Shown: positions 36,058 through 38,841, numbered from the stretch's first letter. The stretch: DNA of 64,000 bases from Fibrobacter sp. (GCA_017626945.1 JAGAHT010000024.1:1120-65119), one strand, 5' to 3'. Notes: generated by a model from the sequence alone, not told the origin. Numbers and translations: made by a program.

Positions 36058-36368
36058 TGGAGCCTCCCGGACTTGAACCGGGAACCAACGGGTTTACGTT
36101 CGTGATGCTTTCGCACCTCCGTGGACTATGTCTTCGCCATGCCCTTGCGGGTTTAGGCGTGGGAGGCTTGCGCGGTCATTAAGCAGGCTCTACTGCTCCG
36201 CTAGTCTCTACACCTTCCAGGAGTGTACCCCTGGCTCGGCTCGGCGTTGCCGTGCAGCGTTTCCGCTGGTTAGGTTTCACCGATTTCTTCCCATTCGCAT
36301 CCAACTCTTTCAAGCTGGTGCCACAATTTTTATGAGTCCGACGCTCTAACCGATTGAGCTAAGGCTCC
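36058..36368 (-). tRNA. tRNA with CAT anticodon (probably Ile2, lysidine type), split by a group I intron; exons 36368-36332 and 36094-36058
   Basis: Joined exons GGAGCCT TA GCTC AATCGGTTA GAGC G TCGGA CTCAT|AA CCCGT TGGTT CCCGG TTCAAGT CCGGG AGGCTCC A form a cloverleaf; anticodon stem has two mismatches; CCA not encoded. Confidence 0.85.
36095..36331 (-). ncRNA. Group I (IC3, Azoarcus tRNA-Ile type) intron, 237 nt, no internal ORF
   Basis: Core motifs AATCGGTGAAACCTAA, GGCAACGCCGAGCC, GAAGGTGTAGAGACTAG, GAAGACATAGTCC, GGTGC-GAAA-GCATC (P9); P1 = CUCAU|AA-AAA-UU-GUGG with U.G at the 5' splice site. Confidence 0.9.
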
Positions 36369-36423
36369 GAGCGCAAAGATAGTAAAAATCGGATTTTTTC
36401 AAGTGAATAAATCATATTTTGTG

Positions 36424-36460
36424 CAAAAAAGAGACCGAAGGCGGCTCCTACTGCCGCCTA
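36424..36460 (-). terminator. Terminator of the leftward early operon
   Basis: AGGCGGC-loop-GCCGCCT followed by a T-tract on the minus strand. Confidence 0.5.
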
Positions 36461-36463
36461 AGA

Positions 36464-36745
36464 CTAGAGATACATCGCTTTCACTTGAGCCTTGATTTTT
36501 TCATCGGCATCGGACTTCGACAGGTAGTCGCGTATCAGGTCGGGAAAATTGTAGGGCGCCCACTTGCACATATAAGCGGCGACCATGCGGAAGAAATCGG
36601 TCTCGACCTGCTTCTCGACGGTCTGCGCGTATTCCTCGCACACGAACCGTTCCGCCATCCAGAACTTTCCCGCATTTCCATTTCCAGCTTCAAAGGGACA
36701 TTCCTTCTCGCCCTTGTAAAAGCTGCACAGACTTCTGTAATTCAT
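36464..36745 (-). CDS. Phage hypothetical protein (93 aa)
   Basis: Part of a tightly packed minus-strand operon of small ORFs. Confidence 0.65.
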   Translation of the reverse strand: MNYRSLCSFYKGEKECPFEAGNGNAGKFWMAERFVCEEYAQTVEKQVETDFFRMVAAYMCKWAPYNFPDLIRDYLSKSDADEKIKAQVKAMYL

Positions 36746-36776
36746 CGTTTGCCTCGCTTAAAAAATAGCTTTTGCA

Positions 36777-37193
36777 CTATTGCTGCAAGCTGTTCTTGAA
36801 CATATTCACGACTTCATCAATCCAGGAACGATTCACCTCGTAGCCCGACGCACAGCGCGTCAGATAGCCGCGAACCTTCTTCTCCACTTCCGCCATACCG
36901 TCGAACACGTCGAAGCAGTAATCTCCATCGGCATCCAGCGGAGAGCCGCGCCCGGAAATTCTGTCTTGGATGCTGCACGCGTAATAGACTCGCGGATAGT
37001 CGAGGGCGCATTTCAGCTCCACATAGCGCCTGTAGCCCTCTCCCTGCCTGAATGTTCGCACATTCTCCACATAGACTCCACAGTCGTTCTTACGGGCGCA
37101 AAGCCATGATTTACACCATGGCCTAGCATTGTTCGCTTCGCTTGCGGAATCCAAGATGGAAAAGAAATCCAGCTGTCCTTCCGCCATCGTCAC
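36777..37193 (-). CDS. Phage hypothetical protein (138 aa)
   Basis: QLDFF N-terminal motif; coupled to the upstream ORF. Confidence 0.6.
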   Translation of the reverse strand: MTMAEGQLDFFSILDSASEANNARPWCKSWLCARKNDCGVYVENVRTFRQGEGYRRYVELKCALDYPRVYYACSIQDRISGRGSPLDADGDYCFDVFDGMAEVEKKVRGYLTRCASGYEVNRSWIDEVVNMFKNSLQQ

Positions 37194-37363
37194 CCCTCCA
37201 GCAATCGAACTTTATCGCGTTCAGGCTGAACGGCCAAGCCGCCCCAGGTTCCATGCACTTGACCAGCGTCGTCAATAAAATCAACAACTCCGACCTTTCC
37301 CGTGTACTGGGGTTCGCCTACCATTTCGAGAATCTCAATCTTGTCTCCGATTTTCAAATTCAT
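37190..37363 (-). CDS. DUF4314-like small protein
   Basis: KIGDKIEILEMVGEPQYTGKVGVVDFIDDAGQVHGTWGGLAVQP. Confidence 0.75.
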   Translation of the reverse strand: MNLKIGDKIEILEMVGEPQYTGKVGVVDFIDDAGQVHGTWGGLAVQPERDKVRLLEG

Positions 37364-37374
37364 GTTCAGCCCTC

Positions 37375-37752
37375 CTAGCAATATTCGACCTGCGTCAGCA
37401 TCGGGTAGCCTTTCGGAAACAGCTTGGTACAAAGTTTTTCCACATGTTCGGAAACGTAATATACATCTTCGTCGCTCAATGTGGTAGTCTCTCCGTCCTT
37501 ATTTTTTACGACCAGGAGATTGCCGACAAACATAGGCGAACCGAGATTGTCGATGGCACTGATTTTCGCGGGCTGCTTGAAAAGACCTTCGTCGTCGCAG
37601 ATAATGTCGAAGACCTTCTTGCCGATTTTCCGTTCCTGAATGTCAATCACGGTACACTGCAATTCGCGGTAATAGTCCGCGAGCTTGTTTTCAATTTCGA
37701 CCGCCTTGTGGGTCTCGTTGGTAACGTCGATTAGGTATGCTTTTATCTTCAT
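37375..37752 (-). CDS. DUF3846-like protein
   Basis: IICDDEGLF..PMFVGNLLVV motif. Confidence 0.65.
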   Translation of the reverse strand: MKIKAYLIDVTNETHKAVEIENKLADYYRELQCTVIDIQERKIGKKVFDIICDDEGLFKQPAKISAIDNLGSPMFVGNLLVVKNKDGETTTLSDEDVYYVSEHVEKLCTKLFPKGYPMLTQVEYC

Positions 37753-37764
37753 TGTTTTTTTCCT

Positions 37765-37998
37765 TTAGGTTAGTGTCCACTTGTTTTGGATTGCATCGTA
37801 AACAACAGCGAAGCCAAGCCTCAAGGCGAGTTCCTTGAGCGCGAGCAGCTTCGCCGCTGCGGTGTCGGCTTGCGCCAGCGTGTACCTTTCCATGGTTCCG
37901 TTGACGCTTTTCTCTGCCATCTTTTGAAGTTCGTCGGATTTCTGATTGAACTCGTTCATCATCCGTTCAAGCTGTTCTTTCACTTTTGCCTTTTCCAT
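37765..37998 (-). CDS. Phage hypothetical protein (77 aa)
   Basis: Coiled-coil small ORF within the operon. Confidence 0.6.
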   Translation of the reverse strand: MEKAKVKEQLERMMNEFNQKSDELQKMAEKSVNGTMERYTLAQADTAAAKLLALKELALRLGFAVVYDAIQNKWTLT

Positions 37999-38000
37999 CG

Positions 38001-38405
38001 CTATGCCTCCACGCTTTCTTCTTCGGGTTCTTCTTCAATCGCTTTTTCGATTTCTTCTTCCAGTTCCTCCATCGCCTTCTCGATGCCCTCGTCAAGCAAG
38101 TAGCAGCGAATCGTCACATCCGCCCATTCGGCGCCTTTCTCGATGGCGTTGCACTCGCAGCAGAACTCGGTCATGGCCTCGCCAAGCAAGTCCCAGTTCC
38201 CCGCGATATTCTGCTCTGCCTCATAGCTGGAGAACGTATAGGAACCCGAAGCGTTGCCAGTGACAGAATCGTCAACCCAGAACGCATCGCGGAATTTTTC
38301 TTTCAGCGTTTCCTTGGACATTCCCTTCACGTCGTGATACCCAAGGTATTCCTTGATGGCTGTCACGCAGTCGTCCTTGATGTTTTCGTGGTAGTCGTAG
38401 CTCAT
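38001..38405 (-). CDS. Conserved phage early hypothetical protein
   Basis: GAGG RBS, MSYDYHENIKDD; DDSVTGNASGSY, ADVTIRCYLL. Confidence 0.7.
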   Translation of the reverse strand: MSYDYHENIKDDCVTAIKEYLGYHDVKGMSKETLKEKFRDAFWVDDSVTGNASGSYTFSSYEAEQNIAGNWDLLGEAMTEFCCECNAIEKGAEWADVTIRCYLLDEGIEKAMEELEEEIEKAIEEEPEEESVEA

Positions 38406-38418
38406 GGTTTTACCTCTC

Positions 38419-38451
38419 AAAAAAAGAGAGGCTCGCCGTTTGGCGAGCCTC
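38419..38451 (-). terminator. Intrinsic terminator in the leader of the early operon
   Basis: GAGGCTCGCC-AAAC-GGCGAGCCTC-TC-TTTTTTT on the minus strand. Confidence 0.75.
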
Positions 38452-38557
38452 GATGGATTGAATCGAAAGTCGTTTTTTTCCCGTCTGGAATCATCAAATT
38501 TCTAGTCAACATTATGGTCATTTTTAAATAGTTTTAGTGCTCTTTTGTTCACTACTT

Positions 38558-38586
38558 AATATACCTAATTTGGTTAGGTTTGTCAA
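38558..38586 (-). promoter_or_regulatory. Sigma70-type promoter TTGACA-N17-TATATT with operator copy 3 (ACCTAA-TTTGG-TTAGGT, 38563-38579) in the spacer
   Basis: Near-consensus -35/-10 at 17-bp spacing; the palindrome fills the spacer. Confidence 0.8.
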
Positions 38587-38671
38587 TGGCCGTACAAAAA
38601 AAATTTTGACGGTCTTTACCCCCTGGTTCAACCTGTTAATTTTTTGTAAATTTTTGACGTCTGGGGATGAG

Positions 38672-38749
38672 CAAAAAGCTCAAAACCAGGTCACAAAAAG
38701 TGGGCTTTTTAAGGCAAAAACAGGGTTTTAAATTGTGAGCTTTTTGTGA
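38672..38749. repeat. Short inverted repeats near the element end (candidate integrase arm-type sites)
   Basis: CAAAAAGCTCA (38672) / TGAGCTTTTTG (38736) and TCACAAAAAG (38691) / CTTTTTGTGA (38740). Confidence 0.4.
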
Positions 38750-38788
38750 GACGTTAATCGAAAACCCAGTATCTACGCGGGACAGGGC

Positions 38789-38841
38789 AGAGCAGCGGAC
38801 TCATAACCCGCGGGTTCCGGGTTCAAGTCCCGGAGGTCCCA
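38789..38841 (+). pseudogene. 3' fragment of an intron-less tRNA(CAT), candidate att duplication
   Basis: GAGC A GCGGA CTCATAA CCCGC GGGTT CCGGG TTCAAGT CCCGG AGGTCCC A; the D-arm 5' strand is missing; a terminator and host genes follow. Confidence 0.75.

Follow-up and report, generated by a model that had tools for sequence, protein, structure and literature searches.

We analyzed a 64,000-nt stretch of DNA from Fibrobacter sp. (the window) and focused on the feature at positions 36058 to 38841, which begins with a transfer RNA (tRNA) gene carried by a prophage and ends with a host tRNA gene fragment. This fragment, at 38789-38841, is probably the right attachment site (attR) of a temperate tailed Fibrobacter phage of about 52 kb. 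This phage would split a host tRNA gene with the anticodon CAT, tRNA(CAT), and bring along an intron-bearing tRNA(CAT) copy of its own, working like the tRNA-dependent lysogeny of mycobacteriophages. By analogy with that system, the junction may be regarded as a tRNA-splitting variant of tRNA-dependent lysogeny in Fibrobacter phages. Two paralogous host tRNA(CAT) genes are involved, which we call X and Y, and a third allele is called Z. The phage copy is of type X, and the gene disrupted in the window is Y.

The plus strand at 38789-38841 reads AGAGCAGCGGACTCATAACCCGCGGGTTCCGGGTTCAAGTCCCGGAGGTCCCA and is identical at 53 of 53 bases to positions 21-73 of host tRNA Y. The latter is an intact 75-nt tRNA(CAT) (GGGACTTTAGCTCAATTGGTTAGAGCAGCGGACTCATAACCCGCGGGTTCCGGGTTCAAGTCCCGGAGGTCCCA), present in about 19 Fibrobacter species genomes. 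An exact search with the last 42 bases of the fragment returned 24 loci, all from Fibrobacter or Fibrobacterales and mostly corresponding to the 3' part of intact Y, and in 100 shuffles a 23-nt probe from the 3' end never matched by chance. ARAGORN called no tRNA at 38789-38841, and the Rfam tRNA model scored 25.9 bits, under its 29-bit threshold; a truncated gene should give this outcome. Rfam gathering thresholds thus miss the fragment, and they also miss the phage tRNA intron described below. An earlier note on this DNA had pointed out that the fragment shares the string GGACTCATAACCCG, including an A31.C39 mismatch, with the spliced phage tRNA. Indeed, this string is contiguous only at the fragment and is reproduced elsewhere by joining exon 1 (..GGACTCAT) to exon 2 (AACCCG..) of the phage gene; the mismatch is also found in native host genes. 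The description given there of the surroundings was accurate as well. A terminator hairpin and host genes follow the fragment, a saccharopine dehydrogenase gene and next an arginine decarboxylase gene, and inverted repeats precede it (38672-38685/38733-38746, 38691-38700/38740-38749 and 38720-38734/38756-38770).

The same phage arm is joined to a tRNA(CAT) 3' part in 7 genomes, with at least 6 different host sequences downstream. The 71 bases left of the common core (AAACAGGG..CGGGACAGGGC) show only 0-2 differences in six of the compared loci (L005, L013, L021, L040, L042 and L043). An empty site was found in L008, where the left flank, an intact tRNA and the right flank follow each other with no phage in between. 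The right flank of L008 is 92% identical to that of the window, and its left flank is 82% identical to the host flank of a phage-carrying locus, L048. Similarly, the host site occupied in L021 was seen phage-free in L012 and L019. The junctions lie in one of two genes, either X, beside a GFO/MocA oxidoreductase gene, or Y, upstream of the saccharopine dehydrogenase gene, as in the window.

Since the left end of the prophage lies outside the window, what we say of it for this genome was inferred from genomes with the same phage, mainly from Fibro_02, which has the window's right junction unchanged and a host flank 96% identical to that of the window. Inside the window, we found no second copy of the fragment, no left att site, no intact tRNA(CAT) and no integrase; a 412-aa open reading frame (ORF) at 5672-6910 was considered as an integrase candidate and rejected, as it encodes a PLD-family nuclease. 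Contigs with an identical 1142-aa helicase (1805-5233) go on to the left with a gene for an MmeI-like restriction-modification (RM) enzyme, an invertase, a TPR protein, repressor/cro and RecT. L032, whose RecT is 99% identical, runs on to a 343-aa tyrosine integrase (PF00589/phrog_1), which adjoins the left attachment site (attL), and then to host genes. This integrase served as the reference for the identity figures given below. By dead reckoning through L025 and L032, we estimate that attL would lie about 13.6 kb left of the window and that the prophage would measure about 52 kb.

In L032, the interval between the integrase gene and the host holds only the tRNA 5' half, GGAGCCTTAGCTCAATCGGTTAGAGCGTCGGACT, followed by ATCAACCCAGCCCCGAAAA. 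Besides L032, six genome loci and one metagenome contig, eight contigs in total, show attL beside integrases 97-100% identical to that of L032. Seven attL junctions carry the tRNA 5' end, and in these, positions 1-33 of X or Y run directly into phage DNA (..CGGACT joined to ATCAACCCAGCCCCG..); the metagenome contig begins within the tRNA. ARAGORN called no tRNA at any of the eight attL loci. We also observed an attL that has no tRNA 5' half (L052, 2650-2670: GGGCGAACT, GCGGACT, ATCAACCC), the loss being either a post-integration deletion or an assembly artefact. As the phage arm holds no tRNA 3' part, the host gene, read from these junctions, is split between positions 33 and 34 and not regenerated, and the fragment is the sole copy of the 3' part.

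Left and right junctions could be paired within four metagenome-assembled genomes (MAGs): Fibro_02 (L048 and L005), Tb.RUG.359 (L046 and L042), RUG11357 (L050 and L013) and JAZQSE01 (L049 and L043). The phage attachment site, attP, is here a reconstruction obtained by combining junctions, not a sequenced free attP. It is inferred to be ..CTACGCGGGACAGGGC AGAGCAGCGGACT ATC AACCC AGCCCCG.., the left part being also given as ..GGGACAGGGC, and, as predicted from the junctions, reads ..GGGACAGGGCAGAGCAGCGGACTATCAACCCAGCCCCG.. The bacterial site, attB, is ..GGTT AGAGCAGCGGACT CAT AACCC GC.. At tRNA positions 21-33 and 37-41, attP does not differ from attB, but the three bases of the anticodon are not the same. 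Both phage arms contain the motif GAGCTTTTTGTGAG, and a further motif, TGTGAGCTTTTTGTGAG, is also found in the P' arm ahead of the integrase gene. The 53 bp of the fragment are therefore not homogeneous: the first 13 bp are the core common to attP and attB, and only 38802-38841 is necessarily host-derived.

Two right junctions, L040 and L043, are chimeric and carry the phage-type AG at positions 26-27 followed by an X-type host 3' part, and the partner attL, L049, keeps the host TA. The anticodon triplet, on the other hand, goes with the right arms, being CAT at attR and ATC at attL. With positions 26-27 following the left arms and the anticodon the right ones, both strand exchanges must fall within CGGACT. 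The main proposals of the earlier note thus hold: the fragment is a prophage att end, the comparison with an empty site agrees with this, the target has the same anticodon as the phage-borne tRNA, crossover takes place in the anticodon arm, and a tyrosine integrase is located at the far end in genomes with the same phage.

Comparison of the junctions thus shows the following course of integration. The tyrosine integrase recombines attP, which has a short core, with a non-initiator tRNA(CAT) gene in its anticodon arm, and strands are exchanged in CGGACT (positions 28-33). Positions 1-33 remain at attL beside the integrase gene, and positions 34-73 reach attR behind the 13-bp core. We propose that the phage-borne X copy would then replace, or top up, the tRNA gene destroyed by integration.

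The phage X copy sits about 2.4 kb inside the right end of the prophage, and its exons are identical to native host X genes. An intron, 237 nt long in the window, separates them in 10 of 10 phage copies and is absent from both native host copies (L039 and L044). The gene is transcribed, as RNA contigs from rumen metatranscriptomes (the source of all RNA results below) cover it at a depth of 77-430. X and Y share the anticodon CAT and are both non-initiator tRNAs, with elongator Met and Ile2 as the two candidate identities, neither of them decisively favoured by acceptor and anticodon-stem features known from E. coli. The Z allele was found in sequencing run X1; it lies at the Y locus and has an X-like 3' half. 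The near-continuum formed by X, Y and Z suggests that they may be redundant isodecoders, in which case one host copy would survive integration anyway. Two related phages (L033, 12298-12371, and L035, 12268-12341; RecT 66% identical) also carry a tRNA(CAT), intron-less and with a different acceptor stem, in which the anticodon arm is again CGGACTCATAACCCG. The loci do not include the integrases and att sites of these phages.

Alignments place the insert among group I introns, in the IC3 type found in bacterial tRNA anticodon loops. Its P1 reads UCAU/GUGG and has a U.G pair that follows the anticodon; P10 consists of AA/UU, and P7 of the strands GACUA/UAGUC. The Rfam model RF00028 (Intron_gpI) aligned over its full length at 21.6 bits, compared to a gathering score of 50. 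The intron can be aligned to 28 other tRNA(CAU) introns, all of which are inserted after CAT and end in G before AA, and to 11 of such introns column by column. A large number of tRNA introns from viral and metagenomic contigs have the same core elements, GGCAACGCCGAGCC and GGUGUAGAGACUAG. Moreover, compensatory changes occur in P2 and P6 among the phage copies (L005 and L038). A sub-threshold match to the Rfam LOOT RNA (36087-36159, minus strand; 25.1 versus 46.4 bits) falls inside the P8-P9 region of the intron, and the LOOT motif may itself be part of the group I introns of this subgroup.

The intron has an unusual 3' end. In the relatives, P9 is followed by a tail of 9 nt whose last base, next to AA, is G; the homologous tail here is CACGAACGUA, followed by AACCC. 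P9.0 pairs the base triplet that precedes the splice site with the one that follows P7 (AUG/CAU in L115, ACA/UGU in L132 and ACG/CGU here). Since this register is kept, the terminal position of the intron is the A at 36095. A 9-nt anticodon loop, which would combine the U and G rules, was considered and set aside, as no RNA contig supports it.

The earlier note had suggested that the intron could keep the phage tRNA from serving as a decoy att site, and the sequence gives this plausible idea a more concrete form. The insertion point of the intron is 3 bp from the crossover window. The phage copy keeps AGAGCGT-CGGACT-CAT and has AAAAATTG in place of the right-hand AACCC of attP and attB. As AACCC is lost to the intron, the copy would be expected to be a poor substrate for the phage's own integrase. 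This would matter, as the copy lies 2.4 kb from attP in inverted orientation and recombination between the two would invert the segment and destroy both attP and the tRNA. We also considered whether the intron has been co-opted as a device against self-recombination that leaves the mature tRNA unchanged from that of the host, with the terminal A throttling or gating maturation (slow or conditional). We offer this idea as speculative, and it may well be wrong.

A free-standing GIY-YIG nuclease gene is located directly downstream of the phage tRNA. The earlier note had suggested that the intron could protect the tRNA against this nuclease, an idea weakened by the distribution of the gene. It occupies a hypervariable cargo slot (35327-36057) and was found in 3 phage copies (the window, L042 and L072), the homologue in L042 and L072 being 37% identical. 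It is absent from five copies (L005, L013, L043, L095 and L107), L038 gave no GIY-YIG match, and L040 ends just after the tRNA. Other copies hold unrelated genes and different terminators in the slot. No RNA was detected over the GIY-YIG gene. Its role as the homing endonuclease partner of the intron was rejected as well, the two not being consistently linked.

Several observations weigh against the proposed lysogeny. The left end is outside the window, so that the split in this genome is inferred from other genomes with the same phage. An exact search for the phage arm returned nothing from IMG/VR, and one for the reconstructed attP returned nothing from IMG/VR or from JGI metagenome contigs. 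When contigs from DNA runs were matched to the junction in search of attP or attB joints, only the lysogen contig and the tRNAs of other strains were recovered. The phage carries X while the window disrupts Y, and the two are identical at only 62 of 74 positions (84%). If X and Y differ in identity, X cannot complement Y; if they are redundant, complementation is unneeded. Intact X and Y were searched in the lysogen's own metagenomes, where contigs are broken by short shared words. The RNA contigs run through both exon-intron junctions, and the joint between exon 1 and exon 2 of X was not seen, which is weak evidence given that mature tRNAs are poorly captured in metatranscriptomes.

The intron itself raises further objections. 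Its last base is A in 10 of 10 phage copies; the terminal base is G in 28 of 28 other tRNA(CAU) introns listed and, as read from their sequences, in the three closest relatives as well, L110, L115 and L132. Despite this terminal A, the guanosine-binding strands of P7 are unchanged. Work on the Tetrahymena intron by Michel in 1989 and by Been and Perrotta in 1991 reportedly found that such a terminal mismatch blocks exon ligation. The terminal A thus casts doubt on efficient exon ligation and hence on any compensating role. Finally, 36/37 is the standard site for this intron class, and the closeness of the intron to the crossover may be coincidental, both targeting the anticodon loop. Because X is carried while Y is disrupted, because the isodecoders appear redundant and because the intron ends in A, we regard compensation by the phage tRNA as an evenly balanced question.

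The same facts can be taken to mean that integration takes place as described but is unrelated to the phage tRNA and its intron: a selfish or decaying intron would reside in a tRNA captured from the host, and lysogens would live on whichever paralogue, X or Y, is left. The standard insertion site, with its 28 other examples, fits this explanation, and so do the poor splicing predicted from the terminal A and the redundancy suggested by the X-Y-Z continuum, with Z at the Y locus. The region upstream of the phage tRNA moreover resembles the host X-locus promoter, which is consistent with host capture. The promoter, perfect exons and intron are, however, all kept in 10 of 10 phage copies, and P2 and P6 show compensatory changes, a sign that selection acts on the fold of the ribozyme. 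In addition, the regenerating attP was lost exactly in the clade that carries the tRNA (see below), a pattern reported for tRNA-dependent lysogeny. We thus consider this explanation possible but doubtful.

The attR hybrid might also be a tRNA in its own right and itself make up for the lost function. In this explanation, GGGAC in the phage arm (38779-38783) would pair with the GUCCC of the Y acceptor, and transcription from the phage arm would yield a D-armless tRNA of 63 nt. The Rfam tRNA model does align with the whole of 38779-38841, at 25.9 bits, folding at minimum energy gives a D-armless cloverleaf, and GGGAC fits Y, the gene that the phage copy does not exactly replace. In two metatranscriptomes, an abundant and discrete RNA, one end of which (38672/38673) is flanked by adapter, extends into the tRNA part. 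Nevertheless, five complementary bases are possible by chance, and the fold is no better than that of shuffled sequences (z = -1.2). Those runs show RNA from the X-type junction, for which the pairing is imperfect, and this RNA is possibly read-out from a promoter that, in the circular phage, would drive the integrase gene. We know of no bacterial D-armless tRNA, which also counts against this reading, and we find it very improbable. The fold at 38779-38841 may be due to chance, or it may go back to an ancestral attP that contained the tRNA. As to the RNA itself (38672-38841, plus strand), the contig depth is 63-117, an Illumina adapter marks the end at 38672/38673, and the 5' part can form a long hairpin (38691-38749).

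Canonical integration into a tRNA gene would have attP carry the tRNA 3' half, leave an intact tRNA beside the integrase and make 38789-38841 a displaced duplicate. This is the usual arrangement, and the earlier note had expected it, with an intact plus-strand tRNA(CAT) identical over about 53 bp to the left. More distant relatives of the integrase follow it. Next to a 62% identical integrase (L195 and L196), the full 53-bp tRNA 3' part lies between the phage genes and the integrase gene, with the identity block starting at position 21, as it does here; the attP of these phages is, by its sequence, canonical and regenerating. A 55% identical integrase (L036) adjoins an intact tRNA. An 81% identical integrase (L194), by contrast, also adjoins a split tRNA (..CGGACTCATAACCC, followed by AGCCCCG). 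Given the canonical state in the 62% and 55% relatives, the clade of the window's phage appears to have lost the regenerating part of attP, and the loss falls exactly in the tRNA-carrying clade. Indeed, seven attL junctions of the clade consist of the tRNA 5' part, positions 1-33, and then non-tRNA phage DNA, with no tRNA detected, the L052 junction has lost the 5' half entirely, and the chimeric attR take only 13 bp left of the anticodon from the phage. Only the relatives with 62% and 55% identical integrases thus follow the canonical arrangement, which is scarcely tenable for this phage. The earlier note had named the lack of a matching intact tRNA upstream as grounds for refutation, and this counts against the canonical arrangement but not against the att end.

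Equally hard to sustain is the reading of the phage gene as an amber-suppressor tRNA(CUA), which ARAGORN returns when introns are allowed (exon 1 ..GGACTC, intron ..GAACG, exon 2 from TAAACCCG) and which gives a terminal G and a 7-nt anticodon loop, since 5' cleavage after C34 permits no P1 containing a U.G pair while P1 UCAU/GUGG sets the site after U36 as in all relatives, P9.0 covariation puts the 3' site two bases further on, and the phage ORFs bear no sign of an alternative genetic code.

Coordinates of the features described, counted from the first base of the window.
Feature	Position	Strand	Basis or remark
Prophage part within the window	1..38801		Phage genes 7051-35323; continues about 13.6 kb past the left edge (estimate)
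Free-standing GIY-YIG nuclease gene, in a variable cargo slot between tRNA and MuF gene	35327..36004	-	Pfam GIY-YIG 25.1 bits, cut-off 22.6
Terminator hairpin after the phage tRNA	36030..36055	-	RNA contigs stop at 36056-36065
Exon 2 of X (positions 37-73)	36058..36094	-	Exons equal host X
Group I (IC3-type) intron, 237 nt, between tRNA positions 36 and 37	36095..36331	-	P1, P7, alignments, compensatory changes
Exon 1 of X (positions 1-36, ends at anticodon CAT)	36332..36368	-	Identical to native intron-less host genes in L039 and L044
Inferred promoter region: CTTG..N19..TACTATCTTTG, -7 box of TAnnTTTG type	36369..36440	-	Same box at the same distance before host X and Y
Six small ORFs from the phage tRNA to the att site, no assigned function	36464..38420	-	No informative Pfam/PHROG matches
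P arm of the att site with repeated GAGCTTTTTGTGAG-type motifs	38430..38788	+	Candidate arm-type integrase sites
Common core AGAGCAGCGGACT, 13 bp, tRNA positions 21-33	38789..38801	+	Present at attL and attR
Crossover window CGGACT: anticodon stem 5' strand (28-31) and loop 32-33	38796..38801	+	Arm segregation in chimeric junctions
Host-derived 3' part of Y, anticodon CAT to discriminator A73	38802..38841	+	Identical to intact tRNA in empty-site L008 and about 18 others
Host tRNA terminator hairpin and T-run	38843..38874	+	Homologous hairpin after the intact tRNA in L008
Saccharopine dehydrogenase family gene, first host gene rightward	38965..40238	+	Syntenic with empty site L008 and with L024

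The phage genes identified in the window encode a prohead protease, a cement protein, the major capsid protein, tail and baseplate proteins, TerL, the portal protein and MuF. Among them is a 7-deazaguanine module (25918-28807, plus strand) with a DpdA-like transglycosylase, QueC, a QueE-like protein of the radical-SAM type and GTP cyclohydrolase I (FolE), preceded by a gene for a ParB-N domain protein. Positions 1-6910 (minus strand) hold defence-type genes for a PLD nuclease and a helicase. Together with L025 13452-18355, this region forms a low-GC (0.41) defence-type island within the prophage, comprising the PLD nuclease, a PLD-SNF2 helicase, a 1148-aa MmeI-like restriction-modification enzyme, a separate TaqI_C specificity ORF and a resolvase/invertase. 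The layout of the island looks like a phase-variable specificity switch. A sharp drop in GC content (0.38 versus 0.55) at 18000-20500 covers a 510-aa ORF (18488-20020) beside spike and baseplate genes, and this region is probably an exchanged tail-fibre or host-range module.

Parts of the region of the six small ORFs are covered by RNA contigs in several datasets. Before the first of these ORFs (38420 downwards) lie a strong match to a sigma-70-like promoter (TTGACA-17-TATATT) and, after it, a terminator hairpin rich in GC (38428-38586, minus strand). Judging from the sequence, the two may represent a leader or attenuator arrangement. Finally, an unrelated element is joined to Y slightly further upstream in L002, about 250 bases from one locus end (..GGGCTT joined to GGTTAGAGCAGCGG..), and the Y gene thus seems to be a hot spot at which several elements integrate.

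We found no description of this element in the Fibrobacter prophage literature searched here. If our interpretation is correct, tRNA-dependent lysogeny reaches beyond the Gram-positive hosts of the literature searched here and into an abundant rumen fibre degrader, and a single family shows the canonical (53-bp core) and the truncated (13-bp core) states together. Island and prophage finders that expect a regenerated tRNA and a displaced fragment would misplace such ends. The tRNA counts of lysogens would be wrong as well, since the host gene is in two parts and the intron causes the phage gene to be missed. A phage with a perfect copy of its own target must keep its integrase off that copy, and the intron is a candidate solution. 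A group I intron with an unaltered G-binding site and a terminal A in every copy recovered is unexpected; it either splices by a route that the model ribozymes do not predict or is kept for a purpose other than the tRNA.

The closest known system is that of the mycobacteriophages, for which short-core, non-regenerating integration with a cognate phage tRNA has been experimentally established, with further candidates among related actinobacteriophages (PMC10865867). There, the short core blocks rebuilding of the tRNA, a phage tRNA of the same isotype is needed for survival of the lysogen, and long-core relatives have no phage tRNA (Guerrero-Bustamante and Hatfull 2024; PMC10865867). Like Fionnbharth, LeBron, Gaia, OneUp and Mollymur, and like prophage Lj965 of Lactobacillus johnsonii, the Fibrobacter phage uses a tyrosine integrase on an attB inside a tRNA gene. 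The core is 8-17 bp long in that system and 13 bp here, and no tRNA is rebuilt at either junction. The phage tRNA has the same anticodon and its own promoter, a putative one here. The pair Boilgate and Fionnbharth, with a long and a short core, corresponds to L195 and the window's phage, and the known targets include tRNA-Ile2/Met-type CAT genes. The differences are a host from the Fibrobacterota, two paralogous targets, a phage copy of X that is 84% identical to the disrupted Y, and a group I intron in this copy, 3 bp from the crossover window and ending in A. Furthermore, any requirement of lysogeny for the phage tRNA may be relaxed here by host redundancy.

With canonical tRNA prophages and islands (Islander, Williams-type anticodon-loop sublocation), the element shares the tyrosine integrase, the arm-type repeats, an attB in the anticodon stem-loop and an identity block that starts from the 3' strand of the D-stem. 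In contrast to these, its phage arm lacks the tRNA 3' part, the far-end fragment is the sole copy, and the gene is inactivated. The intron resembles IC3 tRNA introns (Azoarcus tRNA-Ile(CAU), cyanobacterial tRNA-Leu and tRNA-fMet) in its site after the third anticodon base, the P1 CAU/GUG, the GGCAACGCCGAGCC and GGUGUAGAGACUAG core, the P9 GNRA hairpin and the 9-nt tail. Unlike them, it is found in a prophage-borne gene, has extra insertions in the P3/P8 region, and ends in an A instead of an otherwise invariant G, which P7 leaves uncompensated. The cyanophage psbA intron with its adjacent free-standing endonuclease is a known pairing of an intron and a nuclease. The GIY-YIG gene directly downstream of the intron-containing phage gene recalls this arrangement, but unlike the psbA nuclease, it is present in a minority of the intron phages, in a variable slot, and is transcriptionally silent in the RNA samples.

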